64,000 bases of DNA, from the NCBI GenBank assembly GCA_030697795.1, contig JAUYOV010000004.1, forward strand, positions 211,334 to 275,333. Reading direction: 5' to 3'. The DNA is from a bacterium. Its GTDB lineage: Bacteria; Patescibacteriota; Minisyncoccia; JACQLN01. Positions 3,613-41,710 of this stretch are shown here, piece after piece. Each line of letters begins with the position of its first letter. Position 1 is the stretch's first letter. Position numbers and translations under genes: made by a program. The notes beneath the pieces are model-generated. The model did not search any database, was not told the origin of the DNA, and was given only the letters and a program-made list of their open reading frames with translations.

Positions 3613-3699
3613 GCCCAGGTGGCGGAATTGGCAGACGCACAGGACTCAAAATCCTGCGATGGCAACATCATGAGGGTTCGACCCCCTTCCTGGGCACCA
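3613..3699 (+). tRNA. tRNA-Leu (anticodon CAA)
   Basis: Cloverleaf: 7-bp acceptor stem GCCCAGG/CCTGGGC; anticodon stem CAGGA/TCCTG with loop CTCAAAA, giving anticodon CAA; long variable arm typical of tRNA-Leu; T-loop TTCGACC; discriminator A; CCA is encoded. Confidence 0.85.
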
Positions 3700-11243: not shown

Positions 11244-13729
11244 TATACCACGAAGTTAATAAACCTGTCTTTAATAAAAATAACTTTTTTTACGGGGGAG
11301 ACAAGATACTTAGAAATATTTTTGTTGTTTTTAGCCGCCGTTTCAACCTCTTTTTGAGAAGAATCTGCTGGCATTTTAATAACCGCGCGCATTCTGGCAT
11401 TAACCTGCACTACTATGTCTACCTCCTTGTCTTTGACCAGTTTAACGTCAAACTTTGGCCAAGGCGCTATATGAATAGATTTTTTATTCTTTAAAATTTC
11501 TCTAAATATTTCCTCGCTCATATGTGGTGCAAAAGGCGCTAAAATCTTAGCAAAAATTTCTAGTTCGCTTTTGCCAACAGATTCTATATTGGCTTCAAAT
11601 TCATTTAACAAAACCATTAAAGCCGAGACCGAAGTATTGTAATTTAAATTTTCTAAATCTTCTGTAACTTTTTTGATTGTCTTGTGTATCTTTGTTTGTA
11701 TATTGGAATTTGCTTGCCCTTCCGAAGCTCTGAAAGAGCGAAGGAGGGTGATTTGTTTAGAAATTAGAAATTGGGAATTAGAAATTTTCCAGATTCTTTC
11801 CAAGAATCTGATTATCCCTTTTATACCACCATCTCTAAAATCACCACCTTGATCGAACGGACCCAAAAACATTAAGTACATTCTTAAAACATCGGCGCCG
11901 TAATTTTTAATATATTCGTCGGGATTAACCACATTCCCCTTGGATTTTGACATTTTAGCGCCATCTTTTATTAACAAACCGTGGGCACGGAATTTTTTAA
12001 ATGGTTCGTCAAAATTAGTTAAACGCAGGTCCTTGAATACCATTGCTAAAAAACGCACATACAATAAATGCAAAACAGAATGCTCCGCGCCACCAATATA
12101 CATATCTACCGGGCACCATTTTTTAGTTACAGATTGATCCCAAGCGTATTTCTTTTCTTTAACAGAAGCATAACGCAAATAATACCAAGCCGAATCTAAG
12201 AAAGTATCGGAAACATCGGTCTCGCGTCTCGCCATACCTTCGCATTTAGGGCATTTAACTTTATAAAATTTTTCATCGGCCGCTAAAGGCGACTGGCTCG
12301 TACCAGTTGGCCTAAAGTTTTTTATGTAAGGCAATCTAACCGGTAAATCTTTTTCGGGCACCACAACCCAACCTGGATTTTCCAACTCTCCCAAATTAAA
12401 TTCTCCCTTATTTTTGAGATTTGATTTTTGAGATTTGATTTTTTCTGCGCAGTTTTCACAGAAAACAAGCGGTATAGGCGCACCCCAATAACGCTGTCTG
12501 GAAATTAGCCAGTCACGAAGCCGGAATTGAATTGTTTTTTTACCTCCACTCTTTTTTATTCCTTCTTCAATAGAGACTAAAGGTGCGCTACTCACTGGTA
12601 ATTTGAATTTTTGGGCAAATTCTAAATCACGCTCATCGTGCGCTGGAACACCCATAACTGCGCCTGTGCCGTAACCTGCTAAAACATAATCCGAAATCCA
12701 AACCGGAACTTTTTCGTTGTTGGCTGGGTTAATGGCCGAGATACCAGAAAAAACTCCTGTTTTTTCTGGACCCCGACCCTCATGAGGCGTCGGGGTTATA
12801 TTATTTTTTATATACTCCCTGACCTCATTCGGCGCTTGCCAGCCGATATCTAACCAAGACTTTGCTTTCTCGGGCGAAATTGCAATAAACGTTACACCAA
12901 AAACTGTATCTGGGCGTGTAGTAAAAACTTCCAAATACGCCGATTCACGCTGATCTGACGCAGATTTACGCAGAAAAATTCCGCGTTGATCCGCGTTAAT
13001 TTCCGCGTTGATCCGCGTAAGGGGAAATTTTATAGAAGCACCTTCCGATTTACCTATCCAATTTTTTTGAGCTATTTTTACTTTTTCGCTCCAATCTATT
13101 TTATCTAAACCTTTTAAAAGTTTATCGGCGTATTTAGTTATTCTAAAAAACCATTGCTCTAATTCTTTTTTAATAACTTTAGTATTACATCTTTCACATT
13201 CACCACTTATTACTTGTTCATCGGCTAAAACTGTTAAACACGAAGGGCACCAATTAACCGCCGATTTTTTGCGGTAAGCCAAACCATTTTTATATAACTG
13301 AATAAAAATCCATTGAGTCCATTTATAATATTCAGGGTCGTAAGTTTCTAGTTTTTCGTGCCAAGCAAAACCATTGCCTATCATTTGCAGTTGGCGATAA
13401 AAATTTTTCTCGGAAACTCTGGCTTGATCCATCGGGTGTTCGCCAATTTTTAAAGCGTAGTTTTCGGAATGTATGCCAAAACCATCTAAACCAATCGGCT
13501 CAAAAACGTTATAGCCCTGCATTCTTTTAAATCGCCCGTAAATATCGCTCCCCACAAAAGCGTACACATTACCCACGTGTAAGCCTTCAGCTGAAGGATA
13601 TGGAAACATCATTAGGTTATAGAAAGGATTCTTAGCGTTTTTAAGATCCGGTTCGTAAACCTTCTCGGCCAGCCATTTTTTGCGCCATTTAGATTCTACT
13701 CTCTTGTGGTTGTATTTAGCCATTTGCAT
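11243..13729 (-). CDS. leuS: Leucyl-tRNA synthetase, carrying several low-complexity or repeat-derived in-frame insertions
   Basis: HIGH-type motif HVGNVYAF; KMSKS; editing-domain TTRPDT. Inserts at about 11717-11750, 12410-12450 and 12979-13023. Confidence 0.9.
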   Translation of the reverse strand: MQMAKYNHKRVESKWRKKWLAEKVYEPDLKNAKNPFYNLMMFPYPSAEGLHVGNVYAFVGSDIYGRFKRMQGYNVFEPIGLDGFGIHSENYALKIGEHPMDQARVSEKNFYRQLQMIGNGFAWHEKLETYDPEYYKWTQWIFIQLYKNGLAYRKKSAVNWCPSCLTVLADEQVISGECERCNTKVIKKELEQWFFRITKYADKLLKGLDKIDWSEKVKIAQKNWIGKSEGASIKFPLTRINAEINADQRGIFLRKSASDQRESAYLEVFTTRPDTVFGVTFIAISPEKAKSWLDIGWQAPNEVREYIKNNITPTPHEGRGPEKTGVFSGISAINPANNEKVPVWISDYVLAGYGTGAVMGVPAHDERDLEFAQKFKLPVSSAPLVSIEEGIKKSGGKKTIQFRLRDWLISRQRYWGAPIPLVFCENCAEKIKSQKSNLKNKGEFNLGELENPGWVVVPEKDLPVRLPYIKNFRPTGTSQSPLAADEKFYKVKCPKCEGMARRETDVSDTFLDSAWYYLRYASVKEKKYAWDQSVTKKWCPVDMYIGGAEHSVLHLLYVRFLAMVFKDLRLTNFDEPFKKFRAHGLLIKDGAKMSKSKGNVVNPDEYIKNYGADVLRMYLMFLGPFDQGGDFRDGGIKGIIRFLERIWKISNSQFLISKQITLLRSFRASEGQANSNIQTKIHKTIKKVTEDLENLNYNTSVSALMVLLNEFEANIESVGKSELEIFAKILAPFAPHMSEEIFREILKNKKSIHIAPWPKFDVKLVKDKEVDIVVQVNARMRAVIKMPADSSQKEVETAAKNNKNISKYLVSPVKKVIFIKDRFINFVV
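11717..11750. repeat. Small palindromic repeat family (core CGAAGCTYTRAGCGAAGGAGG), copy in frame inside leuS
   Basis: Shares the core with copies at 10430-10470, 14263-14293, 35714-35770, 41711-41776 and 53781-53812. Confidence 0.7.
12979..13023. repeat. ATCCGCG-unit GC-rich repeat (TTCCGCGTTGATCCGCGTTAATTTCCGCGTTGATCCGCG) in frame inside leuS
   Basis: Related copies lie in ileS (34941-35009) and polX (48637-48676). All three are in minus-strand genes. Confidence 0.7.
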
Positions 13730-14690: not shown

Positions 14691-14707
14691 GTTTTTGAGA
14701 AAAAAAT

Positions 14708-14785
14708 ATCATTCCGAACAGCATTATGGAGAAGACTAATTTATAAATAAAGAGGCTCCATATCGTCTGTGAGGAATGATATTTT
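14708..14785 (+). repeat. About 78-bp structured repeat X, copy 1 (upstream of tatD)
   Basis: About 90% identical to 29077-29157. Nested inverted repeats (TCATTCC/GGAATGA; ATGGAG/CTCCAT). Confidence 0.8.
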
Positions 14786-14787
14786 TA

Positions 14788-16269
14788 CTAGTTTAATCTA
14801 GGAAACAAATTCTCGCCTTTCTTAAAGTTTATTGCGGATTCTGTAAACCAGATTTGTTTTCTAATTTTTTCGCCTGTTTCTGGTAAAAATGGTTCAACCA
14901 AATTTAGTATAACACCTAGCAAGTAGCCAGAATTAGCCATAACTTTCCTAAGATTTTCAGTTGAAACCACGTTTGACGTGGCGTCTTTAATTTCCCAAGG
15001 TTTTTTATCGTTAATATATTTATCGGCAAAAGAAACCAAACCCCAAACATTTATTAAAGCTTCGTGTAATTTAATTTCGTCTAAAGAAGATTCATATGCT
15101 TTATAAAAATCGTTGCAAGCTTTTTTAACTTCTGGTTCTATATCCGTAGCAAAATCAAACTTTACCGGGTTTATTTTTTCGCCCAAAGTAACTGTGCGCG
15201 CTACCAAATTTCCTAAACCATTAGCTAAGTCTGCGGAATATCTATCTTCAAACTTTCTTAAACTAAAATCTCCGTCATCGTAAGAAGGAATTTCTCGTAA
15301 AAGATAGTAACGTAACGCATCTGTGCCATATTTTTGAACCAGTGGCACAGGATCCACAATATTACCCAAACTTTTAGACATCTTTTGCCCTTCCACCGAA
15401 ATAAAACCATGAACAAAAATAGCTTGGGGTAATGGCAAACTAGCCGATAAAAGTATACCCGGCCAAATAGCCGCATGAAAACGTAAAATATCTTTGCCTA
15501 CAACTTGAAGATCGGCTGGCCAAAGTTTTTTAAATTGCTCGGTTTCATCGCCATAGCCAATAGCTGTAATGTAATTAGCTAAAGCATCACACCAGACGTA
15601 TATAACTTGGTCGGGATCGCCAGGCACCGGTACGCCCCACGGCAAATCTTTTTTAGGCCTAGAAAAGCTAACATCCTCTAAACCAGATTCTATAAAAGAT
15701 AAAATTTCATTTTTACGAGATTCGGGAATTATTTTTAATTCGTCATTTTTAATTTTAGAAGCAATCTGGCTTTGATATTTTGAAAGCCTAAAAAACCAGT
15801 TTTCTTGTTCTACTGTTTCTGGTGCTTTTTGGTGATCGGGGCATTTACCATCCACCAAATCTTTTTCTGTTTTAAAAGATTCGCAACCCACGCAATAAAG
15901 CCCGTTGTATTTTTTCTTATAGATATCACCGGCTTCCGAAAGTTCCTGCCATAATTTTTGAACACCTGGCCAATGAACTTCTTGATCGGTTGTTCTAATA
16001 AACCCATCCCAAGAAAGATTTAAAACATTTTTTAACTGTTTAAAATATTCTGCGTTTTCGTTTACAAATTCCTGTGCATTTTTATTCTCTCTTTCGGCTG
16101 CGCGAAAAATCTTAACACCGTGTTCGTCGGTACCCGTTAAAAAGAAAACTTCATCACCTTTTATTCTGTGATAACGCGCCAAAACATCCGCTTGAATCTT
16201 TTCTAAAGCGTGTCCAATGTGCGGTTTCGCATTAACATAATCAATGGCGGTTGTAATATAAAACTTCAT
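14788..16269 (-). CDS. metG: Methionyl-tRNA synthetase (short form, no C-terminal tRNA-binding domain)
   Basis: HIGH motif PHIGHALE and KMSKS; Met-RS catalytic core. 493 aa. Confidence 0.9.
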   Translation of the reverse strand: MKFYITTAIDYVNAKPHIGHALEKIQADVLARYHRIKGDEVFFLTGTDEHGVKIFRAAERENKNAQEFVNENAEYFKQLKNVLNLSWDGFIRTTDQEVHWPGVQKLWQELSEAGDIYKKKYNGLYCVGCESFKTEKDLVDGKCPDHQKAPETVEQENWFFRLSKYQSQIASKIKNDELKIIPESRKNEILSFIESGLEDVSFSRPKKDLPWGVPVPGDPDQVIYVWCDALANYITAIGYGDETEQFKKLWPADLQVVGKDILRFHAAIWPGILLSASLPLPQAIFVHGFISVEGQKMSKSLGNIVDPVPLVQKYGTDALRYYLLREIPSYDDGDFSLRKFEDRYSADLANGLGNLVARTVTLGEKINPVKFDFATDIEPEVKKACNDFYKAYESSLDEIKLHEALINVWGLVSFADKYINDKKPWEIKDATSNVVSTENLRKVMANSGYLLGVILNLVEPFLPETGEKIRKQIWFTESAINFKKGENLFPRLN

Positions 16270-18712: not shown

Positions 18713-19621
18713 TTAAAAATAGAATAGCAGTTTTTGTTTTATATTAAAACCCTTACAATGCCTCAAAACTCCCAAATACGAATCTACATTTTTCTCATTA
18801 ATCTTTCTTAACATCCTTCTTTTTGTTTTAGTCCTCAAAACCCTATGGTTAGGCAAAACCACATAACCCAGAAAATCTATACCCTGCCTGTATTTACGAA
18901 TAATTATTTTGTCTGGATGCAAAAATAGCTTTAGATTCTCAAAAAGAAAAGTATTAATTTTGTAAGACAGATTTAATAAATAATATTTATTACTTCCTAA
19001 AATAACAAAATCATCGCAGTAACGAATATAATACTTTTCTTTTAAGTTATGTTTAACAAATTGGTCTAATTCGTTTAAATAAATATTGGCAAATAACTGG
19101 CTGGTTACATTGCCTAAGGGTAACCCTTTGTTAAAACTACCTATTATTTTCTCAACCAACCATACAGCATTATCGTCTTTGATCTTTAGTTGAATCAATT
19201 TAATTAGAGCATCTTGATCTATGGAATCAAAAAACTTTTTAATATCACACTTTAAAGCAAAAATAGTTTGGCTATTGTTTTGGCTTAACTTACGACAAAA
19301 AGTTTCTAGTCTTGTTACTGCTTTGTGTGTTCCTTTGCCTATTCGGCAAGAATAAGAATCAAACATAAAATGTCTATCGAATATTGGATATAAAACTCTA
19401 AAAACAGCTTGATGTAAAACCCTGTCGCGTACACAAGCTTTATGGATATGACGCAATTTTGGGTCGGTAACATAAAAAGGAATATACTGGCTGTGTTTAT
19501 ATGTTTTATTTTTTAATTCGCTATGCAGTTGAAACAGATTATCTTCTAGGTTAAAATCAAATTCTTGAACATCCAACCTTTTTCTTTTGCCTTTTTTAAA
19601 TTCGCGCCAAGCTAAAAACAA
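18713..19621 (-). CDS. DGR reverse transcriptase (RT1)
   Basis: Matches DGR RTs along its length. N-terminal LAWREFKKGKR. Motif 4 is LGNVTSQLFANIYL, the I/LGxxxSQ DGR hallmark. YxDD motif is YCDD. Confidence 0.85.
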   Translation of the reverse strand: MFLAWREFKKGKRKRLDVQEFDFNLEDNLFQLHSELKNKTYKHSQYIPFYVTDPKLRHIHKACVRDRVLHQAVFRVLYPIFDRHFMFDSYSCRIGKGTHKAVTRLETFCRKLSQNNSQTIFALKCDIKKFFDSIDQDALIKLIQLKIKDDNAVWLVEKIIGSFNKGLPLGNVTSQLFANIYLNELDQFVKHNLKEKYYIRYCDDFVILGSNKYYLLNLSYKINTFLFENLKLFLHPDKIIIRKYRQGIDFLGYVVLPNHRVLRTKTKRRMLRKINEKNVDSYLGVLRHCKGFNIKQKLLFYF

Positions 19622-20024
19622 GTTTTCTAAGCTAATAATTTTTTTAAAAATATTATGGAAAATTTCTCCATTAAAGCCCCCCCCCTACGGAGTTGAAATA
19701 TCGCTGGTGCATAAAATTTGTGAATTGTATAAATTATTCCACGAATGTTTGAAAATATTTCCCAAGACGGAACGATTTACTTTGGGCCAAAAAATTGAGA
19801 ACACCATTCTAGAAATTTTAGAACTAATCCTTTCAGCCAGTTACCAATCAAAATATGGAAAAAGTGAAACCTTAATAAGAGGTAGCGATAAAAATGACCT
19901 TCTAAAGTATCTTATCCGTCTTGCTCACGATACCAAATCAATCAATATAAAAAAATATCTATTAGTTGAGGAAAAGGTTTTAGAAATAGGTCGTATGTTA
20001 GGTGGCTGGATAAAATCCAACTAA
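19587..20024 (+). CDS. avd: Avd-like accessory variability determinant (four-helix-bundle family); true start probably near 19709-19718
   Basis: Paralogous to the two other Avd-like ORFs and shares the C-terminal IGRMLGGWI motif. Alignment to those paralogs places the N-terminus near VHKICELYK. Confidence 0.7.
   Translation: MPFLNSRQAKNKFSKLIIFLKILWKISPLKPPPYGVEISLVHKICELYKLFHECLKIFPKTERFTLGQKIENTILEILELILSASYQSKYGKSETLIRGSDKNDLLKYLIRLAHDTKSINIKKYLLVEEKVLEIGRMLGGWIKSN
19677..19686. repeat. Homopolymer C10 in the divergent RT1/avd1 promoter region
   Basis: 10 consecutive C, 56 bp upstream of the RT1 start codon and about 25-30 bp upstream of the likely avd1 start. Confidence 0.9.
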
Positions 20025-20055
20025 ACTTTGCAAAGAGCGCCTAAAAAATAAGGCG
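20024..20055 (+). terminator. Intrinsic terminator after avd1 (AGAGCGCC-loop-GGCGCTCT followed by a T-run)
   Basis: 9-bp GC stem and U-tract. Lies between avd1 and TR1. Confidence 0.5.
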
Positions 20056-20180
20056 CTCTTTTGTTTGGAAACTACCAGAGGACGACCAGCTATGTTGTCG
20101 TTGCGATTGCTAGACCAATTGTAGTTGACGTTGGCTAGACCACCGTTCTCACGGTTACCACCGTAAAGCCGGCTGGAGTC
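20054..20180 (-). repeat. DGR template repeat TR1 (AAC-rich on the minus strand)
   Basis: About 127 nt, nearly identical to 20491-20618. All 8 differences are A in TR1 versus C/T/G in VR1. TR1 encodes GGNRENGGLANVNYNWSSNRNDNIAGRPLV. Confidence 0.85.
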
Positions 20181-20431
20181 CTCAAATTTTTGCTTTAAAC
20201 CGTCCATAATCACCGAAAATCTAAATATAAATTTTCTGAAATCCGCATCCCACGGATAGTTTTTTACTCGGCAACTCTTAAATAATCTAAGAATACCCGA
20301 TCTAGTTTAAAGCAAGGAGTTTCGTTATTTCCTGTTTTAAACAGGAGAGTAAATGCGAGAATAAACCTTAGTCTATTCTTCATTAGCTTTACTCAAGGAA
20401 AATTTTACCAAATTTGTGAAAATAAAAAAAT

Positions 20432-20451
20432 CCCCCAACTTACGTTGGGGG
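20432..20451 (-). promoter_or_regulatory. GC-rich hairpin (CCCCCAAC-GTAA-GTTGGGGG) about 40 bp downstream of VR1
   Basis: 8-bp stem with a GNRA-type loop on the target strand. Confidence 0.4.
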
Positions 20452-20486
20452 AAAATCCAAGGGCCAAAGCCCAAGGGGAAAAGAAC

Positions 20487-21320
20487 CTACTTTGCGAAAC
20501 TCACCAGAGGACGACCAGCTATGCTGCCGCTGCGATTGCTAGACCAATCGTAGTTGACGTAGGCTAGACCACCGTACTCACGGTGACCACCGTAAAGCCG
20601 GCTGGAGTCCTCAAACTTATCGTCGAACCACTCCCACATATTGAATCGGCCGCGATTGCTGTCGTAGAGATTGCCAATGGCATTGGACTCTACAGCCCGC
20701 TCCAACCGAACCTGTTCGGGTTTGAAACCGAATGCTTCGGCGATAGCAGGACAAACCACATCTCGCCATTCATCGTTGGTAATGGCAAAACGAGAGCCCG
20801 AAGGAGTATTATCGTGTTTGCCGATTTTTCCTTCTTCGCGCAATTTACTGATGATTAGCGCGAGAGGGTCATTGGAAAATACTTGCGTGCCGTCGGTGTA
20901 ATTCACACCGACGGTGAAATCAGCTAGATACCAACCTCTGTAGAGTTTGGCACTGTCGGGGGCGAGCTTGCCTTCCCCGATTTTCTGGTAGAACCATTTT
21001 TCAGGTTTTACCCAATTCTTGAGCTTGCAATTCTCGCCAATTCCTTCCATCGGCAGATATACCGGCCTGAAGTCGAACCCAGCCCACTTGGCCAAGTTCT
21101 CTTCGGTGAATTCGGGAGGCAGAGGATCAACATCCACACGGAAGAACTTTTGAAGCTTCTTCTGTGTTGCCTCCACTAAAGCTACCAGCAAAGACACTAT
21201 GCGATGTTCGTTGAAAGCTTTAACACTTTCCAAAGTGTGACTGCCGTCATCTATCTGACGGAAAAAATCTTTGAGCACGCCGGACCACGCCGACATCTCA
21301 CCGACTGGGGCATTAGCCAT
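20487..21320 (-). CDS. DGR target protein 1 (FGE/C-type-lectin-like C-terminal variable domain); GC-rich
   Basis: VR1 lies at the C-terminus. The pattern WEWFDD...RLYGG...GRPLV resembles FGE-type CLec folds. Strong SD AGGAGA upstream. Confidence 0.75.
   Translation of the reverse strand: MANAPVGEMSAWSGVLKDFFRQIDDGSHTLESVKAFNEHRIVSLLVALVEATQKKLQKFFRVDVDPLPPEFTEENLAKWAGFDFRPVYLPMEGIGENCKLKNWVKPEKWFYQKIGEGKLAPDSAKLYRGWYLADFTVGVNYTDGTQVFSNDPLALIISKLREEGKIGKHDNTPSGSRFAITNDEWRDVVCPAIAEAFGFKPEQVRLERAVESNAIGNLYDSNRGRFNMWEWFDDKFEDSSRLYGGHREYGGLAYVNYDWSSNRSGSIAGRPLVSFAK
20491..20618 (-). repeat. DGR variable repeat VR1 (3-prime end of target 1)
   Basis: Encodes GGHREYGGLAYVNYDWSSNRSGSIAGRPLV at the C-terminus of the 277-aa ORF. 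Confidence 0.85.
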
Positions 21321-25542: not shown

Positions 25543-25870
25543 ATAGATGAATTGTATCGTAACAAGAGAAAAATATCACGCTAAAGGAATGTTATAATAT
25601 TCATATCCTGCTAATGCAGTTTGAACCATGGTTCAAACTCGCGGGATATCTCATTTTTGCCTTTCCGCCAAAGCTTTACGGGCGGTAAAAGAATCGCCAG
25701 AGTATTAAACCTTACGGGGTTTAATAGCGTGCGAACTAAAATGGAGATGGAACTTCTTGCTTGTTTTTGGTGGAGATTCCGCCAAAGGCGGATGCTCCCA
25801 AGTAAAATTCAGGAAAGAAGAAACATAAATTTCATACTTTCCGGTGATATTGGATGGAAACAAGCAAAAT

Positions 25871-25992
25871 CTTGACTCCGATGGCAACCGCGTTAGCGTC
25901 GGCAACTTCGATCAGAACGGCCTCAACATCAACAACAACTGGGACGATAACCGCAACGACAATCTTGGCCTGGCCTCCTCTCGAACTTCCAT
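25871..25992 (+). repeat. DGR template repeat TR2 (AAC-rich on the plus strand, non-coding location)
   Basis: Matches the reverse complement of 27629-27749. Encodes VGNFDQNGLNINNNWDDNRNDNLGLASSR, versus VR2 VGDFDRFGLYFDYDHDDNRYDSLGLASSR. Confidence 0.75.
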
Positions 25993-26002
25993 CTGCAACC
26001 AT

Positions 26003-26026
26003 AAAACCCTCCTTTAGGAGGGTTTT
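26003..26026. terminator. Bidirectional hairpin AAAACCCTCC-TTTA-GGAGGGTTTT between TR2 and the avd2 stop
   Basis: 10-bp stem flanked by A/T runs on both sides. Confidence 0.5.
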
Positions 26027-26037
26027 ATGGTTTTGCA

Positions 26038-26388
26038 TCAATGAGTTTTTGACGAGCGGATCCAACCGCCTAACATCCGCCCTATCTCATTAACCATTTC
26101 CTGAATTAAAATATATTTTTTATTCTCTAAAACACCAATATCTTTAGCCAAGCGGACATAAACCCTAAAAAGATTGAGCTTAACACTAACTCTTTCTAAG
26201 TATGTTACTCTTTTGAGCTTATCCAAACTGCTTATTTCCAACAAATAGCCCAATATCTCAATCAAAATCAAATTGCATTTCTCGCCTAAAGAATACTTGT
26301 CTTGCTTGGGAAAACCTTTCAAACAAGCATAAAATTCTTTATATAAATCGTAGGTTTTTTTAAATAGCGGAATATCAAAACTATCCAT
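26038..26388 (-). CDS. avd: Avd-like accessory variability determinant (avd2)
   Basis: 116 aa. C-terminus EIGRMLGGWIRS. Paralog of avd1 and avd3. Start diverges from RT2 with a 2-nt overlap. Confidence 0.75.
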   Translation of the reverse strand: MDSFDIPLFKKTYDLYKEFYACLKGFPKQDKYSLGEKCNLILIEILGYLLEISSLDKLKRVTYLERVSVKLNLFRVYVRLAKDIGVLENKKYILIQEMVNEIGRMLGGWIRSSKTH

Positions 26389-27382
26389 GAAAATTTATCA
26401 AAATATATACGAACAAATAATCTCTGCCGAAAATTTGTTTCTAGCTTGGGCAGAATTCAAAAAAGATAAACAAAAAAGAAAAGACGTTATGCAATTTGAA
26501 TACAGGCTGGAAAAAAATATTTTAGGCTTGTGCCAAGAACTAAAAAATCAAACATATAAGCATAGTCCTTATAGTAATTTTTATATAACCGACCCCAAAC
26601 CCAGGCACATTCACAAAGCATTGGTTAGAGACAGAGTGGTGCACCATTCAGTTTTTAATATCCTTAATCCTGTTTTTGAAAAAACTTTTATCTTTAATTC
26701 TTATTCCTGCAGAAAAAACAAAGGCACTCACAAGGGCATAAACCAATTACACAAAATTTTAAGAAAAATAAGCCAAAACAATCATAAACCATGCTTTATA
26801 TTAAAATGCGATATTAAAAAATTCTTTCAATCAGTTAATCACGGTATTTTGTTAAATATTATTGATCGAAAAATATACGATGAAAAAGCATTGGCCTTAA
26901 TTAAAGAAATTGTAGAGAGTTTTAAACCCGGGTTGCCCATAGGCAACCTAACCAGCCAATTATTTGCCAATATTTATTTAAATAATCTGGACCAATATAT
27001 AAAGCACCATTTAAAAATTCCCTTTTATATAAGATATACCGATGATTTTGTGATTATTTATAACGATTTGGAAAAACTAAAACAGTGGCTTAGCCAGATT
27101 CAGGAATTTTTAAATGTAAACCTAAAACTACGTCTGCATCCCAATAAAGTTATTCTGCGCAAATATCATCAAGGAACTGATTTTTTGGGCTATGTGCAAT
27201 TTCCCCATTATTGTATTTTGCGCCCTAGAACCGAAAGAAGAATAATGAAAAGGATACAGCAGGGAGTTTCTGAACAATCGCTAAATTCATATCTAGGTGT
27301 GCTTTCTCATGCTAATAGTTATAAATTATCGGAAAAAATCAAAAACTTGTTTTGGTTTAATAAAAAAGAAAACCCGTCTTGA
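26387..27382 (+). CDS. DGR reverse transcriptase (RT2)
   Basis: IGNLTSQLFANIYLN (SQ motif); IRYTDDFV. Matches RT1 and RT3 along its length. Confidence 0.85.
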   Translation: MKIYQNIYEQIISAENLFLAWAEFKKDKQKRKDVMQFEYRLEKNILGLCQELKNQTYKHSPYSNFYITDPKPRHIHKALVRDRVVHHSVFNILNPVFEKTFIFNSYSCRKNKGTHKGINQLHKILRKISQNNHKPCFILKCDIKKFFQSVNHGILLNIIDRKIYDEKALALIKEIVESFKPGLPIGNLTSQLFANIYLNNLDQYIKHHLKIPFYIRYTDDFVIIYNDLEKLKQWLSQIQEFLNVNLKLRLHPNKVILRKYHQGTDFLGYVQFPHYCILRPRTERRIMKRIQQGVSEQSLNSYLGVLSHANSYKLSEKIKNLFWFNKKENPS

Positions 27383-27622: not shown

Positions 27623-28396
27623 CTATTTGGAACTTCGAGAGGAGGCCAGGCCAAGACTGTCGTAGCGGTTATCGTCATGGTCGTAGTCGAAGTAGAGGCC
27701 GAACCGATCGAAATCGCCGACGCCAACGCGGCTGCCATCGGAGTCAAGAGACGAAGTTCGGACATAGGTGTGTTCGAACAGTCGCTCACCAGTAGCCATG
27801 AAGTGGCCAATGATGGCGTAGACCACCACTTGCGCCTTCGGTGTTTCCTCGTCTTTGCCGAGTAGCTTCTGCTGATCATCCCAAGTCTTGGACGTGGAAT
27901 CCATAACCGGAGTTTTGCGGACGAGATGCCATCCGACTTCGCCCTTGTATTTGGCAAAAGTCTCCTTGTTGTACCAATCCTGTTCATAAAACAGGCGCTG
28001 ACCGTTGTTAGCGACCTTGCCTCGGATGTCCAGGATTGAGAGAGGAAAAATGGCGACAAGGGTATGCGTGTCTCTTGCCTCGGTAAGCTCGGCTTCAGTG
28101 AACGGAACTTCGGCCAAAGCCGAGATCTGCGCTCGCGTGGGCTTTACACCGAGATACTGAATCGCTTCCTCTACCCCAAACATGTTGCGCCCCATTATCT
28201 GATGGGCCGTTTTCTGCGAAGTGGTGGCTTCATAGCCGCCGTTGCTGATAAGCCTAACCACTTTCGTGGCAAGGTCATTGCCCTTGGAGCCTATGACTCT
28301 CTGGGCAAGTTCATCGTTGAGGCCAGCGGCCTCAAGTTTTAGGAGCACTTCATGCTCTTTGTGCACCGACAGAGTACGGCTCACGATGGTTTCCAT
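27623..28396 (-). CDS. DGR target protein 2 (C-terminal variable domain); GC-rich
   Basis: 257 aa. VR2 at the C-terminus. Strong SD GGAGGT upstream. Confidence 0.75.
   Translation of the reverse strand: METIVSRTLSVHKEHEVLLKLEAAGLNDELAQRVIGSKGNDLATKVVRLISNGGYEATTSQKTAHQIMGRNMFGVEEAIQYLGVKPTRAQISALAEVPFTEAELTEARDTHTLVAIFPLSILDIRGKVANNGQRLFYEQDWYNKETFAKYKGEVGWHLVRKTPVMDSTSKTWDDQQKLLGKDEETPKAQVVVYAIIGHFMATGERLFEHTYVRTSSLDSDGSRVGVGDFDRFGLYFDYDHDDNRYDSLGLASSRSSK
27629..27749 (-). repeat. DGR variable repeat VR2 (3-prime end of target 2)
   Basis: See TR2. About 13 mismatches at TR adenines. In addition, one codon differs at all three positions (TGG in TR, CAT in VR) and there is one C/T difference. 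Confidence 0.75.
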
Positions 28397-29038: not shown

Positions 29039-29076
29039 AAACGGTAAAAGTATAACATGTATCCTAAATTAAAATT

Positions 29077-29157
29077 ATCATCCCGAACAGCATTATGGAG
29101 AAGACTATCTTATATAAATAAAGAGGCTCCATATCGTCTGTGAGGGGTGATAATTTT
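29077..29157 (+). repeat. About 80-bp structured repeat X, copy 2 (upstream of recO-like, divergent from the GT39 gene)
   Basis: See copy 1. The outer stem shows a compensatory change (TT/AA to CC/GG). Confidence 0.8.
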
Positions 29158-29211
29158 TCTTAAAAACTTGCTGGCGAGCGAAAGAGCAATTTTTAAGCTA
29201 AACTATTAAAC

Positions 29212-34370: not shown

Positions 34371-37300
34371 TTAAATATTTTTAATCCCCACCCCGATTTC
34401 AAATCCTTCATAATTCCAAACTTTGTGGACCAAGAAATTTTCGTGTTCGGTTATGCCAAAGTTAATTTGTGTAGAACGAGTTTCGGCTTTTATAACTTGT
34501 TCCCAACGAGTTAATAATTCTTTAAAGTTGGCGTTTTGGTTAAGTTCGTAATGTAAAATTATTTTATCTTCTGGTGTTAATTTGGCTTCTTTTCGCATTT
34601 CGTTTATATTGCGAATCATTTCACGAACCATTCCTTCTTCCTTAAGCTCCGCCGTAAGTTCGGTATCCAAATTAACGTTGTTCTTTTCTATTTTTCTATC
34701 ACTTAAAACTTTTTTAACATTGAGTTCTTCGGCAACTATATATAGAACATCGCCAATTAAATTGTAATCAGCCGGTGAAACATATAAAGCATTTAAGGGC
34801 TGGCGTACGCGCAAACCCGCTTGAGCGCGCTCGGCAAGCCCCAGCGCCACAATTTCGCGGGCTCTATCCATGACTTTCGTAATATCGGAAGCCTTAACAG
34901 TTTTGGTATTTGGCCATTTTTCCAAATGAACCGACTCCCCAAACGCCGATAAACGCCGATTTTTATCCGCGCTGATCCGCGCTGATCCTTGCGTTAATCC
35001 GCGTAATTCTTGATAGAGCCATTCCGATATAAACGGCGCAAATGGCCCCATAACAACAGATACGCGTTTTAAAACTTCGGTTAAAGTATTTTGAGCCGAT
35101 AGTTTTTCGGCATCTATATTTTGCTTTTGGAACTTACGGCGGCTACGGCGTATATACCAATTAGAAAGTTCGTCTATAAAAGCTTCTATAGCACGCGAAG
35201 CGGAAGTAATGTCGTAGCTTTCTAAAAATTTATTTACTTCGAACTCCAACATTTCTGTTTTAATCAAAACCCATTTATCTAAAATATCTGTTTTGGCTAG
35301 TAAAGATTTCGGAGCTTCGGTGTAATAAGTTTCTAAAAACAAAAACGAATTAATTAAAGTATCGGCGAATCTACGTTTTTTAGATTCTATATCGCGCAAA
35401 CTAAAAAGTTTATTATCGCCCGGCGCGTTTACAGTGTAAAAATACCAACGCATCATATCGAACCCAACTTTCTCACCCACCAGCCAAGGGTCTACAATGT
35501 TCCCTTTAGACTTCGACATCTTCTCGCCCTTTTCATCTAGAACATGGTTTAAACTAATTACATTCTTATACGGATTACCTTCGCCTAAAGCGGTAGATAC
35601 CGCCATTAAAGTATAAAACCAGCCCCGGGTTTGATCGATCGCTTCGCAAATATAATCTGCTGGAAAATGGTCTTTCGGTAAATTTTTATTTTTTATATTT
35701 AAATTTTTCTTGTCCTTCGAAGCCTTGCTGTGCCACTCCGTAGCTTTGAGCGAAGGGTGGGCGTAGGAGGAAACTTGAGACGCCCACGGCATTGCACCCG
35801 AATCAAACCAAACATCGGCCAAGTCTTTTATACGTTCCATCTTCGAGGAACACATAGAACACTTAAGGAACACGCTATCGGCATAGGGGCGATGCAGGTT
35901 TAAATTGCCTTCTTCATCGTGGGGCCAGTTATTTGTTTCTACAAAAGTAAATTCGGCAGGGGACAAAGCTAGTTTAGAATCTTTAACTGCGTTTTGATAC
36001 AAAAGTTTTGTTTCGTCTTCGCCATAAATTCCATTAGATAATTGCATTAAAAATAAGGGGTCCATATGGCTTACCACAACCACCTTCTTGCCAGCGTGTT
36101 CTCTAGAAACATCCATCATAAATTCGCGCACCCGTTTGGCCACATCCAACCACGATTCGCCTGCCGGCGCGGGGCGAATAAATTTATCTTTAAAAGAATT
36201 AAAATATTTTTCATATTCCAAAAATGGCCCGCCATTAAACTCGCCAGTGTTTATTTCGCGTAAGCGTTCATCAAAAATTACTTCTTTTATTTTAAGTTCG
36301 TCCGCCAATATTTGAGCCGTCTCTCTGGCTCTTAATAGATCCGATGAATATATGGCCGATACCTTATTAGCCGCCAAAAGTTTTTTTATATTTTGGGCGG
36401 ATGCCTCTGCTTGTTTTCTACCCTTTTCGGTTAGGGGGTTTAAAATCTTTTCAGGGTAAGCACTGCAAATACCTTTAGCGTTAGATTCTGCTTCGCCATG
36501 GCGCATTAAAATTAAAGTGGTTGGAGAATCTAGGCGGTGTTCGTTAAGCTCGGCTAAAGAACCAATAACAGTTTTGTGTTCGCATTTGGTGCATGCCCAA
36601 ATTGGCAAGGGTGTTCCCCAATAGCGTTCGCGGCTTATAGCCCAGTCTTTAACCTCGCGTAACCATTCGCCAAACCGGCCATCTTTAATGTGTTCGGGCA
36701 CCCAATTAACTTTTTCGTTATTTTTAATTAGATCGTTTCTTAACGCCGACATTTTTATAAACCAACTTTCTTGGGCGTAATATAGTAAGGGCGATTTACA
36801 CCTCCAGCAAAAAGGATATTCGTGCTTATAGCTTGACTCATTAAACAGCAAATTTTGTTTTTTTAAGTAAAACAAAATCGTTTTTTCGGTTATGGGGTCT
36901 TTTTTGTTTTCACTAACAACAGCAAGCCCGCCTACTATAGGAACAGATTTTACAAAAACTCCTTCACGATTAACCGTGTGGAATTTAGGCAAATTTAATT
37001 TGGAACCGAGTTCAAAATCGTCGACGCCATACATTACGGCTGTATGCACAATGCCCGTACCATCTGCGGTAGTTACAAAATCGGCTTCGTAAACTCTGTA
37101 CGAATTTTCGGATTCCAACTCTTTAACAGCAAAAAGTGGTTCGTAAGAAAGTCTAGTAAGCTCGCTAGAAGTTAGTTCTTTATTTATTTTGTATTCTACT
37201 TTAGCCTCGCCAAAAACTTTAGGCGCTAAATCGCGAGCCAAAATATATTTTTCACCATTAGCTTCGACTTCTACATAGGTAACTTTCGGGCCAACAGCTA

Positions 37301-38022: not shown

Positions 38023-39018
38023 TTAAGCTAGCGGAAAATAAGACATTAGTAAAATATCGGTAATTCCATAAGTATTCCCATGCTTCAACAACCCCAAATA
38101 AGAACTTACCGTTTCTGGCTCTGGGTTCTCTCCAATTCTTTTCATCATCCGTTTTTTAGTAACTGTTCTTAAAACTTTATGATCTGTAAAATGAACCCAA
38201 CCCAAAAAATCCGCACCCGAAGCTAGAGTTTTGATAAAAACTTTGTCGGGGTGGAGTGTGAGTTTGAGATTTTTAATTAAAAATTCTTGAATCTTTGGGA
38301 TTAAGTTCTCTAACCATTCTTTGTCTTGCGATAAAACCACAAAATCATCGGGGTATCTAATGTAATACTTAACTTTTAATTTATGTTTAACAAACTGGTC
38401 AAACTTGTTCATATAGATATTCACCAAAAGCTGGGAGGTTAAATTGCCCAAGGGCAAACCAATATTGGGTTTTGTTTTAAAACTGGACACAACATTATTG
38501 AGTAACCAAATAATATTTTTGTCTGGTATATATTCAGTTAGTATCTCTAGCAAAACTTTGTGATGAATACTGGAAAAGAATTTTTTAATGTCGCATTTTA
38601 AGACCCAGCAAGTTTTAGTGTTATTTTGACCAACTTTGTAAGCAAAAGACTGAAAACGATTCAGGGCTTTATGCGTGCCTTTGTTCTTTCGGCAAGAAAA
38701 AGAATCGGCTATGAATGTTTTATCAAAGAAAGGGTAAAGAATATGATAAATTGCGTGGTGAAGTAGCCTATCCCGAACTGTGGCTTTATGTATGTTTCGG
38801 GGTTTGGGGTCGGAAATATTGAAAGCTTGGTAAATGCCATGCCGATAAGTGAAATTGACCAAGTCTTGGTTAAGTTGAAAAATATTATCCATTAAATTAA
38901 AGCCAAATTCCTGCACATCTTTTCTTTTTCTCTTGCCTTTGATAAACTCCTGCCAAGCCAATAACAAATTATCAACGCTAATAACATCTTCAAAACTATG
39001 GATCAATTGAGTTTTCAT
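38023..39018 (-). CDS. DGR reverse transcriptase (RT3)
   Basis: LGNLTSQLLVNIYMN (SQ motif); IRYPDDFV. Paralog of RT1 and RT2. Confidence 0.85.
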   Translation of the reverse strand: MKTQLIHSFEDVISVDNLLLAWQEFIKGKRKRKDVQEFGFNLMDNIFQLNQDLVNFTYRHGIYQAFNISDPKPRNIHKATVRDRLLHHAIYHILYPFFDKTFIADSFSCRKNKGTHKALNRFQSFAYKVGQNNTKTCWVLKCDIKKFFSSIHHKVLLEILTEYIPDKNIIWLLNNVVSSFKTKPNIGLPLGNLTSQLLVNIYMNKFDQFVKHKLKVKYYIRYPDDFVVLSQDKEWLENLIPKIQEFLIKNLKLTLHPDKVFIKTLASGADFLGWVHFTDHKVLRTVTKKRMMKRIGENPEPETVSSYLGLLKHGNTYGITDILLMSYFPLA

Positions 39019-39035
39019 AATTCTACATTAAGTAA

Positions 39036-39046
39036 CCCCCCCCCCC
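39036..39046. repeat. Homopolymer C11 in the 53-bp divergent RT3/avd3 intergenic region
   Basis: 11 consecutive C. A similar C10 tract at 19677-19686 sits between RT1 and avd1. Confidence 0.9.
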
Positions 39047-39071: not shown

Positions 39072-39443
39072 ATGAAAAATCTCTATTTTATCTGGTTTCA
39101 ATACTACCAGATTTTACCCAAAGCGCATCGCTACACGCTTGGCCGCAGAATTGACTCTATGTTTATTGAAATAGTTGAAGCGATAGTTACAGCGTCTTTT
39201 CTAACGCAAGAAAAGAAGCTCCCGTTTGTTCAGCACGCCCTTCGCAAAACAGACACGCTTAAAATCCTATTACAAGTATTATGGGAAACTAAATCTTTAG
39301 ATGATAAAAAATATATAGCCGTATCAAAACCTTTAGAAGAAATCGGCAAAATGCTGGGTGGCTGGAATGGCCAGCTTCAAAAACCCCTCGACATAGCTCG
39401 GGATAAAGAAAACTCTCCCCACAAAAAGCAGAGAGAGAAATAA
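39072..39443 (+). CDS. avd: Avd-like accessory variability determinant (avd3)
   Basis: 123 aa. C-terminal EEIGKMLGGW motif. Confidence 0.75.
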   Translation: MKNLYFIWFQYYQILPKAHRYTLGRRIDSMFIEIVEAIVTASFLTQEKKLPFVQHALRKTDTLKILLQVLWETKSLDDKKYIAVSKPLEEIGKMLGGWNGQLQKPLDIARDKENSPHKKQREK

Positions 39444-39447
39444 AGAA

Positions 39448-39573
39448 AGTTGCGAGCACGGCCGAAGGATTGTTGGCATTCCAGTCGTTCTCAAGCCAGT
39501 TGTAGTTCCAGTCCCACTCACCATCGTTCCAGTAGAGATAAAGAACGTTGCGGTTGCCATTCGGACTGCGAAT
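39448..39573 (-). repeat. DGR template repeat TR3
   Basis: Encodes RSPNGNRNVLYLYWNDGEWDWNYNWLENDWNANNPSAVLA. Begins 5 nt after the avd3 stop. Confidence 0.85.
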
Positions 39574-39824
39574 ATATTGTATAAAGCGCCACCTATGCCA
39601 CCACCCCTTGAATACTCTTAGGGTTGTATCGTATTTGGTATCTAAAATACCCTAGCGCTATATACCGAGTATCTTCATTTTTTTAAGCTTCCATAAACCA
39701 CCCTATTCCCAACCGTAATCGGGAATACTCTCGATTTATGGTTACTGGCTTCGGTAGCAGGCAACCTTAATCGCCCGCGTATTCACCTAATACCATTTGC
39801 ATAATAACATTTTGCAAAAGAAAA

Positions 39825-39851
39825 TTCCCTACGACATTACGTCGTAGGGAA
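39825..39851 (-). promoter_or_regulatory. Hairpin TTCCCTACGAC-loop-GTCGTAGGGAA about 54 bp downstream of VR3
   Basis: 11-bp stem. Confidence 0.4.
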
Positions 39852-39902
39852 TTTAGAGTACAAAGTCCAAAGGATCTAAAAGTTCTAGAATTCTAAGGAC
39901 TA

Positions 39903-40547
39903 TTAACTCGCGAGCACGGCCGAAGGATCGTAGGCACTCCAGCCGCCCTCAAGCCAGCGGCAGTACCAGCCCCACCCACCACCGCCCCAGCAGAGACAAA
40001 GAACGTAGCGGCGGCCAAGCGGACCGCGAAGGGTGGTGCCGTCAAAGGAAATGAAGGTGGTATTGCTGTTCGTTTTTTCTTTCCAACTTTCGGGAATAAG
40101 ACTCTTGTTTTCCCAGAGAGTTTGGAAGATTTTGGCATCTAGGCGGACGTAATTTTTGGCTTTGAGGCGCTTCAGTTTCTCTTCACCTTTGATGACACTC
40201 TCGTCTTCTTTGAGGCAAGTGACTAACTGGATGTTGGAGAGGTCTAGCTCGGTGAGGTTGAGAGAGCGCTCATCCTGTTCTTCCTCGCCCGAGAGACCAT
40301 CGCCATCTGCTGGACCTTTCCAGATGCTCCAACCTTCGCCCAAAAACTGGGCGGGGTTGAAGGGTTGGGTGCGGTTGATTTTTAAGACCGTATCTCCAAA
40401 ACGCCCCTCCACCGCATTCTGCAAATAGCGTTGGAGTTTTGCCGGATCGTAGGGATAACCCTTGGGCTGACGAAGCTGTCGGCCAATTTCAAAAAGCTGG
40501 CCAGTGATGCTTTCGTACAGTTCGCCTGCGACACTAGGATGTGCCAT
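39903..40547 (-). CDS. DGR target protein 3 (C-terminal variable domain); GC-rich
   Basis: 214 aa. VR3 at the C-terminus. Confidence 0.8.
   Translation of the reverse strand: MAHPSVAGELYESITGQLFEIGRQLRQPKGYPYDPAKLQRYLQNAVEGRFGDTVLKINRTQPFNPAQFLGEGWSIWKGPADGDGLSGEEEQDERSLNLTELDLSNIQLVTCLKEDESVIKGEEKLKRLKAKNYVRLDAKIFQTLWENKSLIPESWKEKTNSNTTFISFDGTTLRGPLGRRYVLCLCWGGGGWGWYCRWLEGGWSAYDPSAVLAS
39905..40030 (-). repeat. DGR variable repeat VR3 (3-prime end of target 3)
   Basis: Encodes RGPLGRRYVLCLCWGGGGWGWYCRWLEGGWSAYDPSAVLA. 24 substitutions relative to TR3, all at TR adenines. Confidence 0.85.
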
Positions 40548-41620: not shown

Positions 41621-41710
41621 CTGCTACGCCAAGGCTACGCAGTGCACGCACCAATCTAAACAAGACATGCTATATTAATTGAACGATCTTGTTAGATTAG
41701 AATAGTAGCA

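Follow-up and report, generated by a model that had tools for sequence, protein, structure and literature searches.

The 64-kb stretch of DNA analysed here (the window) contains three DGRs, at 18.7–21.3, 25.6–28.4 and 38.0–40.5 kb (DGR-I, DGR-II and DGR-III), in which the TR appears, from comparison of related loci, to be a transcription unit of its own. We consider it probable that all three are chromosomal DGRs of the CPR/Patescibacteria type with the B3 layout and separate transcription units, including a free-standing TR RNA. The layout itself is already known: it is the standard CPR architecture and adds nothing by itself. CPR DGRs were reportedly first surveyed by Paul et al. in 2017. 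What is new relative to the published layout is a set of predicted elements, namely the leader and promoter-like box of the TR RNA, a long-range helix and a hairpin past the TR, together with a conserved G/C tract at the avd/RT junction.

Gene order and orientation of the three cassettes

Each cassette pairs a DGR-type RT with a gene of the bAvd family, encoded on the other strand, and has its TR just past the avd 3' end. Read in the RT orientation, the order is TR, avd (reverse strand), RT, with no further accessory gene in any of the three cassettes, and the sense strand of the TR is always the RT strand. The initial annotation had proposed this common order, and gene identities, strands and TR/VR alignments all agree with it. 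Its strand calls also stand up to independent gene calling, as Pfam places the two domains on opposite strands each time: RVT_1 matched three times, at 18713–19621 (−), 26387–27382 (+) and 38023–39018 (−), with E-values of 1e-20 to 1e-26, and bAvd (PF22296) matched above its gathering score at 19656–20024 (+), 26038–26388 (−) and 39072–39443 (+). The RTs carry GNxTSQ, of the motif-4 GxxxSQ type, and YxDD in the form of YCDD, YTDD or YPDD. The TR, which had been described as lying directly behind the avd 3' end on the other strand, indeed ends 39, 46 and 3 nt past the avd stop in DGR-I, DGR-II and DGR-III, respectively.

When TR and VR are aligned, each of the three cassettes shows fixed differences that, read on the RT-sense strand, are biased towards A. 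Each VR lies at the 3' end of its target gene, with its end no more than a few codons from the stop of that gene. The cassettes thus combine the features by which DGRs are recognised: a DGR-type RT, an adenine-biased TR/VR near-repeat, and a VR at the 3' end of a coding gene. No recognisable domain was found by Pfam in the three target proteins.

Among related RT loci with enough upstream sequence, avd is upstream of the RT on the opposite strand in 76 of 76, with the TR 0–87 nt past the avd stop and A-biased mismatches in the RT sense. With every one of these relatives sharing the order, chance is not an issue for the layout. Every named source record among the 80 closest RT loci is a Patescibacteria/CPR MAG. 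The three RTs of the window are mutually 52–55% identical and are therefore paralogues or separate acquisitions, a relationship that would also suit a local rearrangement of this genome, copied among the cassettes by duplication. However, the 76 loci come from many different CPR MAGs, and the order is the dominant CPR architecture (Wu et al. 2018, PMC5758913). A one-off rearrangement is therefore refuted, and we give it practically no weight.

Wu et al. (2018, NAR 46:11, PMC5758913) assigned 90% of their CPR set to Architecture B3, 'TR-(avd)-RT', and in CPR/DPANN B3 the TR, avd and RT are ordered and oriented exactly as in the window. The architecture had been annotated as unusual, which holds only relative to Bordetella phage BPP-1; among CPR DGRs, it is the norm in the literature. 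Further likenesses are the single target gene, usually upstream, target proteins in which Pfam recognises no domain, and the RT relatives, which are Patescibacteria MAGs including RIFCSP groundwater genomes; DGR-II differs from B3 in that its target is downstream and convergent rather than upstream. A DGR clade restricted to Patescibacteria has also been described (Roux et al. 2021).

Evidence for an independently transcribed TR RNA

From the gene order, the initial annotation had deduced that the TR must be transcribed either independently or through antisense avd. This inference is sound, and comparison of the relatives favours the independent route, with a conserved predicted promoter, a structured leader and a predicted TR-sense terminator. 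The spacer between VR and TR is 278–431 nt long in 50 of 52 loci. Of 53 loci, 39 have a TGnTAnnnT box at a distance of 185–300 nt upstream of the TR, which narrows to 219–238 nt in 28 of them. The strict box is absent from the remaining 14/53 loci, where -10-like variants align. For this uncultivated lineage, promoter and terminator are predicted from consensus-type features, and we infer the RNA ends from sequence.

Between the candidate promoter and the TR is a leader of ~190–265 nt with strong covariation. RNAalifold predicted 37 pairs from 35 leaders, 34 of them with compensatory changes, and model R1 matches 72 of 80 loci, always in the RT sense, once per locus and ending at the TR start. 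In the four helices that were tested, 93.3% of cells are paired, compared to 38–54% when the partner is slid. A helix of 7 bp is predicted to join the leader to sequence just past the TR. Here 90.5% of cells are paired (46–57% when slid), five pairs show compensatory changes, and 31 double-change cells were counted compared to 9.0 ± 2.4 in shuffles, none of which reached this number (0/500).

No Rfam family (Rfam 15) was found in the leaders or in the avd/RT junctions, and the window has no match at E ≤ 1. Full-text searches of the accessible literature (DGR with homopolymer, phase variation or covariation) returned neither the leader nor the G/C tract, and promoters, leader RNA and homopolymer tracts are not mentioned by Wu et al. 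(2018, PMC5758913).

Features of the individual cassettes

DGR-II has its TR and RT on the plus strand. A candidate extended -10 box of the TR RNA (TGTTATAAT, 25590–25598) precedes the predicted structured leader (25605–25869) and the TR (25870–25991, from the TR/VR alignment). The leader was absent from the training set of model R1 and still matches it at 25706–25875 (+), with 37.2 bits and E ~1e-6. The long-range helix would pair 25741–25746 in the leader with 25987–25992. Past the TR is a 16-bp hairpin (25997–26032) with the inner stem CCCTCC/GGAGGG, followed by a T-rich run. The bAvd gene (26038–26388, minus strand) and the RT with its RVT_1 domain (26387–27382, plus strand) overlap by their ATG codons, in the sequence CATG at 26386–26389. 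The target gene (27623–28396, minus strand) is convergent with the RT and carries the VR (27628–27749), which is inverted relative to the TR and has 13 of its 18 mismatches to it at A.

DGR-III is read on the minus strand. Its target gene (39903–40547, VR at 39905–40030) is followed by a terminator-like hairpin with a T-run (39816–39851), then by the candidate extended -10 box of the TR RNA (TGTTATTAT, 39801–39809) and the predicted structured leader (39573–39794), in which 39672–39678 would form the leader strand of the long-range helix. The alignment with the VR places the TR at 39447–39572, with 24 of 25 mismatches at TR A. The putative post-TR helix strand, UCUUUAU (39440–39446), overlaps the stop codon of avd on the other strand. 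The next element is a terminator-like hairpin (39413–39437) with a U-run (39404–39412), so that the whole of 39404–39437 lies within the C-terminal tail of the avd ORF. The bAvd gene (39072–39443, plus strand) and the RT (38023–39018, minus strand, RVT_1) are separated by a head-to-head gap of 53 nt that holds a C11/G11 homopolymer (39036–39046).

In DGR-I, also read on the minus strand, the target gene is an ORF at 20487–21320 with a VR at its 3' end (20491–20634 as aligned, core 20503–20618), identified by repeat D3 and the TR/VR alignment. A terminator-like hairpin and T-run follow the gene (20431–20452), and a candidate extended -10 box (TGGTAAAAT, 20402–20410) lies 196 nt upstream of the TR. 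The TR RNA leader (20206–20395) would be a divergent copy of the conserved structured leader; it is included in the leader alignment, and its match to model R1 (20182–20363, minus strand) is weak, at 21.7 bits with filters off. The TR, placed by alignment at 20064–20205, has its sense strand on the RT strand, and TR adenines account for 11 of the 18 mismatches and, by our reading of the alignment, for all of those in the conserved core. A hairpin lies between the TR and the avd stop (20032–20061), with the T-run TTTTGTTT on the avd (plus) side.

The avd ORF of DGR-I (bAvd, 19587–20024, plus strand) has in-frame starts at TTG 19587 and GTG 19707, and ATG 19655 is out of frame given the C9 tract as assembled (C9/G9, 19677–19685). 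The RT (18713–19672, minus strand) is an ORF from TTG 19621; homologous codons extend upstream to ~19669, and an ATG at 19672–19670 is out of frame. The head-to-head gap is ~34 nt when taken from this out-of-frame ATG to GTG 19707, the sole nearby in-frame avd start. It should be noted that DGR-I is atypical, as its leader scores weakly, its T-run is on the avd side and the in-frame ATG of its RT has been lost.

The hairpin past the TR and the end of the TR RNA

A strong hairpin terminator had been annotated between avd and the TR in DGR-I and DGR-II. The hairpins are real and present in three of three cassettes, but the T-run is mostly on the other side. By alignment and a tolerant scan of 53 loci, a hairpin with a T-run in the TR sense is found ~10–60 nt past the TR in 51 of 53 loci, compared to 6 of 53 with a T-run in the avd sense; a stricter scan (perfect stems, ending at the avd stop) gave 15/53, an underestimate. 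This orientation suggests that the hairpin is more likely the predicted end of the TR RNA, or a predicted Avd-binding stem-loop, than a terminator of avd. Every cassette has the hairpin at the avd 3' end and the T-run of DGR-I is on the avd-sense side, as expected for an intrinsic terminator of avd. However, in many loci, including DGR-III, the hairpin is inside the tail of the avd ORF, upstream of the stop codon, which is the wrong place for such a terminator, and together with the T-run counts this makes the original reading very unlikely.

What lies beyond the hairpin and U-run is antisense avd, and the TR could instead be the 5' part of one long transcript that continues through it into the RT, which would then be translated from an RNA containing its own template. 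TR and RT share a strand in the window cassettes as well as in all relatives, two ordinary divergent promoters would not fit into the short avd/RT junction, no RT promoter could be defined, and the DGR-I hairpin lacks a T-run in the TR sense. All of this is consistent with read-through. However, nearly all loci have a GC hairpin and TR-sense T-run right past the TR, the long transcript would be fully complementary to avd mRNA, and the arrangement of G-tract, SD-like AAAGG and RT ATG fits a separate signal for RT expression. We therefore regard the single long transcript as unlikely.

With a separate TR RNA as the preferred reading, the target gene would end in the VR and then its own hairpin/T-run terminator, and a non-coding TR RNA of ~400 nt would start at the conserved extended -10 promoter. 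It would consist of the structured leader (~190–265 nt) and then the TR, which the 7-bp helix would close into a loop by pairing the leader with the immediate 3' flank of the TR. The RNA would end at the GC hairpin and U-run that abut or overlap the avd 3' end on the other strand, with avd and the TR RNA transcribed convergently. RT and avd would be transcribed divergently across a junction that ranges from a 2-nt overlap to ~50 nt and includes G7–G14 in most relatives. The TR RNA would then be reverse-transcribed by RT and Avd, with errors specific to adenines, to give a cDNA that would take the place of the VR.

Comparison with the BPP-1 DGR

The DGR of BPP-1 consists of mtd-VR, avd, TR and brt, and its RNA runs from the avd 3' end through the TR to a 140-nt spacer, Sp (Handa et al. 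2024, bioRxiv 10.1101/2023.10.23.563531). Its parts recur in the window: a DGR RT, Avd, and a TR and VR that differ specifically at adenines. In BPP-1, however, avd, TR and RT are co-directional and the TR RNA starts in the avd 3' end, whereas avd is on the opposite strand in the window and relatives have a conserved -10 box ~225 nt upstream of the TR. A spacer like that of BPP-1, 100 nt or more in length and carrying the priming site and RT-binding elements 3' of the TR, appears to be absent here, as the RNA is predicted to end ~50 nt past the TR, and the large structured domain conserved among relatives lies on the 5' side. By analogy, the 5' leader may provide the RT/Avd-binding and priming functions that belong to the 3' spacer in BPP-1.

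Both systems have a stem-loop directly 3' of the TR (here, in the window cassettes and in 51/53 loci). Avd binds there in BPP-1, and the post-TR stem-loop could be an Avd-binding element instead of a terminator, as in Handa et al. (2024). Furthermore, the predicted duplex joining the TR flanks is comparable to the 'cPRT Stop' duplex of BPP-1, although its upstream strand would be ~100–125 nt upstream of the TR rather than within ~40 nt. The RT-10 motif RNA of BPP-1-type DGRs (Weinberg et al. 2017, PMC5737381) is a structured element between TR and RT; it resembles the leader as a conserved structured RNA flanking a DGR TR, but on the opposite side.

A single phage element, with its functional RNA 3' of the template, is the basis of current models of DGR reverse transcription, which invoke spacer self-priming, Avd and RT grapples and the cPRT Stop duplex; their extension to CPR elements relied on folding of short flanks. 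The most recent structural survey was limited to flanks of 40 nt on the upstream side of the TR and 100 nt on the downstream side. In the largest natural DGR group, the structured RNA appears to precede the template, and the transcript to end shortly beyond it. If so, the priming mechanism or the RNA topology differs in CPR DGRs. A more general proposal is that CPR B3 DGRs are rearranged around a free-standing, terminated RNA whose 5' structured domain is clamped to the TR 3' flank, with the G/C tract regulating the proteins; this is tentative, and as a whole we lean slightly away from it. For a reconstituted system, the conserved leader, long-range helix and G/C tract offer concrete targets for mutation.

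A G/C homopolymer at the avd/RT junction

The initial annotation had avd and RT transcribed divergently from 50–90 bp. The divergent orientation holds; the spacing does not, ranging from a 2-nt overlap to 53 nt in the three cassettes. At this head-to-head junction, 69 of 76 loci have a homopolymer of G7–G14. Junction tracts make up nearly all of the 75 G/C runs of at least 7 nt in 524 kb of related loci, and the tracts of DGR-I and DGR-III are the sole runs of at least 8 nt in the window. Past the G-tract come an SD-like AAAGG and the RT ATG, the latter 13–20 nt from the end of the tract in most loci. A -10 box directly past the G-tract has a weak position profile, and the SD-like AAAGG fits at least as well.

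Phase variation by homopolymers is known from poly-C and poly-G tracts in the promoters of Bordetella fim and Neisseria porA and opc, and in Haemophilus from TA repeats between the divergent hifA and hifB genes. The tract is similar to such phase-variable loci, being a G/C run of 7–14 nt at a gene 5' end or between divergent genes, and contingency loci are defined by a homopolymer of at least 7 nt in a promoter or 5' coding region, as found here. One possibility is a contingency switch, in which slipped-strand changes of the tract turn avd and/or RT expression on and off. In addition to its prevalence and its near-exclusive position, tract length differs in three of four locus pairs with flanks at least 80% identical, and avd has an open frame across the tract, read as PPP codons. 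However, phase-variable loci vary within a strain, and in one metagenome scan both of the strains compared, each assembled independently from two metagenomes, have equal tract lengths (G10/G10 and G8/G8). An exact-protein look-up of the window proteins for tract-length variants gave no match. Furthermore, an ATG upstream of the tract is in frame with avd through it in only 12 of 69 loci, below the one third expected by chance, which makes it unlikely that translation is simply switched on and off from that ATG. Overall, we consider a contingency switch possible but doubtful.

The low number of in-frame ATGs also means that translation of Avd from upstream of the tract, through poly-C as PPP, is not general, and many loci have a stop codon directly before the tract. 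As an alternative start, we considered the position of the Leu codon that precedes 'PVL', with TTG or ATG as the start codon. This start is partly supported, as one of the two codons is present there in 25 of 61 loci, compared to a background of 18% TTG among Leu codons.

Gene content and order of the three cassettes

The interval 19587-20180 holds a plus-strand ORF and, directly past its stop, one copy of a 116-142-nt repeat whose second copy is located at the 3' end of the gene at 20487-21320(-). Pfam identifies this ORF as bAvd (PF22296; 76 bits against a cut-off of 40) and the ORF divergent from it, 18713-19621(-), as RVT_1. Together these parts make up DGR-I (18.7-21.3 kb), and the same parts are found in DGR-II (25.6-28.4 kb; RT 26387-27382(+), avd 26038-26388(-)) and DGR-III (38.0-40.5 kb; RT 38023-39018(-), avd 39072-39443(+)). 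The DGR-type GNxTSQ motif and YxDD are present in each of the three RTs.

When the repeat pairs were aligned on the coding strand of each target gene, mismatches fell at adenines of the avd-adjacent copy (DGR-III, 24 of 25; DGR-II, 13 of 18; DGR-I, 11 of 18). Because the adenine bias sits on the avd-adjacent copy, that copy is the TR; in each cassette its sense strand is that of the RT. The avd stop and the TR end are separated by 39 nt in DGR-I, 46 nt in DGR-II and 3 nt in DGR-III. The target genes of DGR-I and DGR-III lie upstream of the RT on the same strand, and that of DGR-II lies downstream and is convergent with the RT.

The Pfam calls and TR/VR alignments confirm what the initial annotation had observed, an order of TR, avd on the reverse strand and RT when read in the RT orientation, for all three cassettes; one numerical detail was wrong. 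While avd and RT do diverge, the gap of 50-90 bp assigned to them does not hold: the start codons of DGR-II overlap on opposite strands (CATG, 26386-26389), leaving no intergenic region, and the two ATGs of DGR-III are 53 nt apart.

The TR-(avd)-RT order is fixed in this RT clade

The RT alignment was used to scan one genome per species, which gave 514 relatives; the best 80 of the 514 (61-84% identity) were kept. Every named source record among these 80 is a Patescibacteria/CPR MAG, many of them from the RIFCSP groundwater set. With RT and Avd called by HMMs built on the window proteins, avd was found directly upstream of the RT and on the opposite strand in 76 RT records; the remaining 6 are on contigs with no upstream sequence. 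When the 450 nt past the avd stop were aligned locally with the remainder of the locus, a repeat with A-biased mismatches in the RT sense was recovered for 53 records. The distance between the avd stop and the TR is 0-87 nt in these records. Except in DGR-II of the window, the same strand carries the VR further upstream, at about 450 nt in almost every record. The TR-(avd)-RT order is fixed throughout this RT clade and is not the one-off rearrangement that had been named as a possible refutation.

Wu et al. 2018 (PMC5758913) distinguish layouts B1 (avd-TR-RT), B2 (avd-RT-TR) and B3 (TR-(avd)-RT), where parentheses denote the reverse strand, and state that two or more transcription units are needed when components lie on different strands. 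A DGR clade confined to Patescibacteria has been described (Roux et al. 2021). Since B3 is published, the description of the architecture as unusual holds only relative to Bordetella phage BPP-1; in this host group the layout is the published norm. As a finding the architecture is ordinary and already known. The interpretation offered in the initial annotation is supported, although the arrangement was already published as the CPR standard.

Conserved elements flanking the TR

The spacer from VR end to TR start measures 278-431 nt in 50 of 52 loci. In the aligned spacers, the target gene is followed by a GC hairpin with a T-run and then by a conserved extended -10 box (TTTnTGnTAnAAT); the remaining stretch before the TR, about 215 nt, is conserved. 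In 39 of 53 loci a strict TGnTAnnnT match precedes the TR by 185-300 nt, and in 28 of those 39 by 219-238 nt. Predicted extended -10 boxes of this consensus type lie at 20402-20410(-) in DGR-I, 25590-25598(+) in DGR-II and 39801-39809(-) in DGR-III. As a separate observation, degenerate CTTnGG / CCTTTGA repeats stand right after the target stop and before the terminator hairpin in most loci (39852-39903 in the window; columns 1-190 of the spacer alignment, A3). These repeats might be linked to target-site (IMH-side) recognition.

A conserved, structured leader RNA occupies the stretch after the -10 box and directly 5' of the TR, at 20206-20395(-), 25605-25869(+) and 39573-39794(-). RNAalifold predicted 37 pairs across 35 leaders, with compensatory changes in 34 of them, and single pairs often take four to six of the standard pair types. 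A covariance model of the 3' half of the leader (R1; 143 positions, 22 pairs) matched 72 of the 80 loci, once per locus, on the RT-sense strand and each time ending at the TR start; judged from match positions, the eight loci with no match have the RT near a contig end. The model scored 137 bits on DGR-III, which belonged to its training set, 37 bits (E ~1e-6) on DGR-II, which did not, and only 21.7 bits on DGR-I with filters off. Rfam 15 has no family at the leaders or the avd/RT junctions.

After the TR, a near-universal pattern in the RT sense reads ..CTC-GCAACT-nnC-TTnAT-TTCTCTCCC(loop)GGGAGAG-TTTTGTTTT, after which comes antisense sequence of the conserved Avd C-terminus. By a tolerant scan, 51 of 53 loci have a hairpin with a T-run after the TR in the RT sense, and 6 of 53 have one in the avd sense. 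The hairpin reported between avd and TR in two of the cassettes does exist, but it is not limited to them, as all three have one (20032-20061 in DGR-I, 25997-26032 in DGR-II, 39413-39437 in DGR-III). In many loci, DGR-III among them, the hairpin falls inside the C-terminal tail of the avd ORF. The 20-residue tail of avd-III (39380-39443; ..DKENSPHKKQREK) is encoded by the antisense of the TR-RNA terminator hairpin, an overlap that recurs in many relatives.

A long-range helix and a predicted free-standing TR RNA

The segment between TR and hairpin (UCUUCAU) pairs with a leader segment (AUGAAGA) that closely precedes the modelled 3' domain, some 100-125 nt ahead of the TR. In a 33-sequence alignment this 7-bp helix is paired in 90.5%, compared to 46-57% when the partner is slid by 1-3 columns. 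The helix has 31 cells with changes on both sides, whereas shuffles give 9.0 +/- 2.4 (0 of 500) and slid partners no more than 7. By inspection, two-sided changes keep the helix in DGR-II (AUGGAG / UUCCAU) and DGR-I (GAAAC / GUUUC).

It had been asked whether the TR is transcribed alone or through antisense avd, a question to which the relatives give a better answer than the window by itself. Taken together, promoter, leader, helix and hairpin in the relatives point to a free-standing TR RNA. Such an RNA would be about 400 nt long, with its own promoter, a structured leader, the TR looped by the long-range helix, and a terminal hairpin with a U-run. The elements are conserved as sequence and structure; from them we infer the actual RNA ends.

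In BPP-1, cDNA synthesis depends on an RNA that runs from the avd 3' end through the TR into a 140-nt spacer; this spacer, located 3' of the TR, is wrapped around RT-Avd and provides the priming. A 2024 preprint by Handa et al. reports that a stem-loop bound by Avd directly follows the TR and that sequences on either side of the TR form a duplex. Its authors folded 40 nt of upstream and 100 nt of downstream flank, and on that basis propose conservation of both features in 207 of 278 DGRs, including CPR elements. The elements of this clade match two of these features, the post-TR stem-loop and the upstream/downstream duplex. However, beyond the stem-loop this clade has a U-run and then antisense avd, and its large conserved structure is 5' of the TR. 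The leader may supply functions that fall to the spacer in BPP-1, in an RNA whose parts would then be arranged differently from the paradigm.

Wu et al. 2018 (PMC5758913) make no mention of promoters, leader RNAs or homopolymer tracts. In a limited literature check, which did not include Paul et al. 2017, we did not find descriptions of the structured 5' leader with its long-range clamp, the TR-sense terminator or the conserved G/C tract considered below; if confirmed as new and functional, these would be of interest to DGR specialists.

A G/C tract at the avd/RT junction

The only two C/G runs of at least 8 in the 64-kb window, C9 at 19677-19685 and C11 at 39036-39046, are both exactly at an avd/RT junction. 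DGR-II has lost the tract completely. A run of 7-14 G on the RT strand is present at 69 of 76 related junctions; the related loci, 524 kb in total, contain 75 such runs, almost all of them at these junctions. With duplicates removed, tract length is 8-11 at 60 of 67 junctions. After the tract come a yTTAAAAGG-like sequence and then the RT ATG, in most loci 13-20 nt past the end of the tract.

The avd reading frame stays open across the tract, where it reads PPP, and the conserved Avd N-terminus (LPVLEK..Y.LW) begins 2-6 codons past it. An upstream ATG in frame with avd exists in only 12 of 69 loci, and the Leu position before PVL is TTG or ATG in 25 of 61 loci, against a background TTG share of 18% among Leu codons. 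Therefore, avd probably starts just after the tract in many loci. In many avd genes there is no ATG, GTG or TTG between tract and conserved N-terminus (related loci L002-L080; 19655-19710 and 39036-39075 in the window). Tract length differs in three of four close-relative pairs and is identical in two strains that were each assembled from two metagenomes. A role for the tract as a contingency switch is attractive but unproven.

DGR-I is the least typical cassette

Homologous codons of RT-I run past TTG 19621 to about 19669, adding 16 residues (EIFHNIFKKIISLEN compared to KIYQNIYEQIISAEN of RT-II), and this stretch offers no in-frame ATG, GTG or TTG upstream of TTG 19621. The ATG at 19672-19670 is out of frame with RT-I by 2 nt (ATG-GA-GAA). 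Canonical starts in the avd-I frame are limited to TTG 19587 or GTG 19707, ATG 19655 being out of frame given C9. The T-run of the DGR-I hairpin is on the avd side. DGR-I is the least typical of the three cassettes and may be decaying, yet inspection of the alignment shows that in the conserved core every TR/VR mismatch is still at an adenine.

Other elements in the window

In the window, Rfam matches that reach the gathering score are limited to a tmRNA gene (105 bits) at 41262-41623(+) and a tRNA at 3613-3696(+). An intergenic element of about 90 nt, with no Rfam match, occurs in two copies that are about 90% identical (14702-14789 and 29071-29160), just upstream of minus-strand genes (TatD-like and RecO-like); either strand of it folds into a long, imperfect hairpin (z -5.5 to -7). 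Three unrelated large ORFs, one of them an isoleucyl-tRNA synthetase-like gene, contain short tandem repeats of the TCCGCG(T/C)TGA type (12958-13020, 34966-35006 and 48636-48676).
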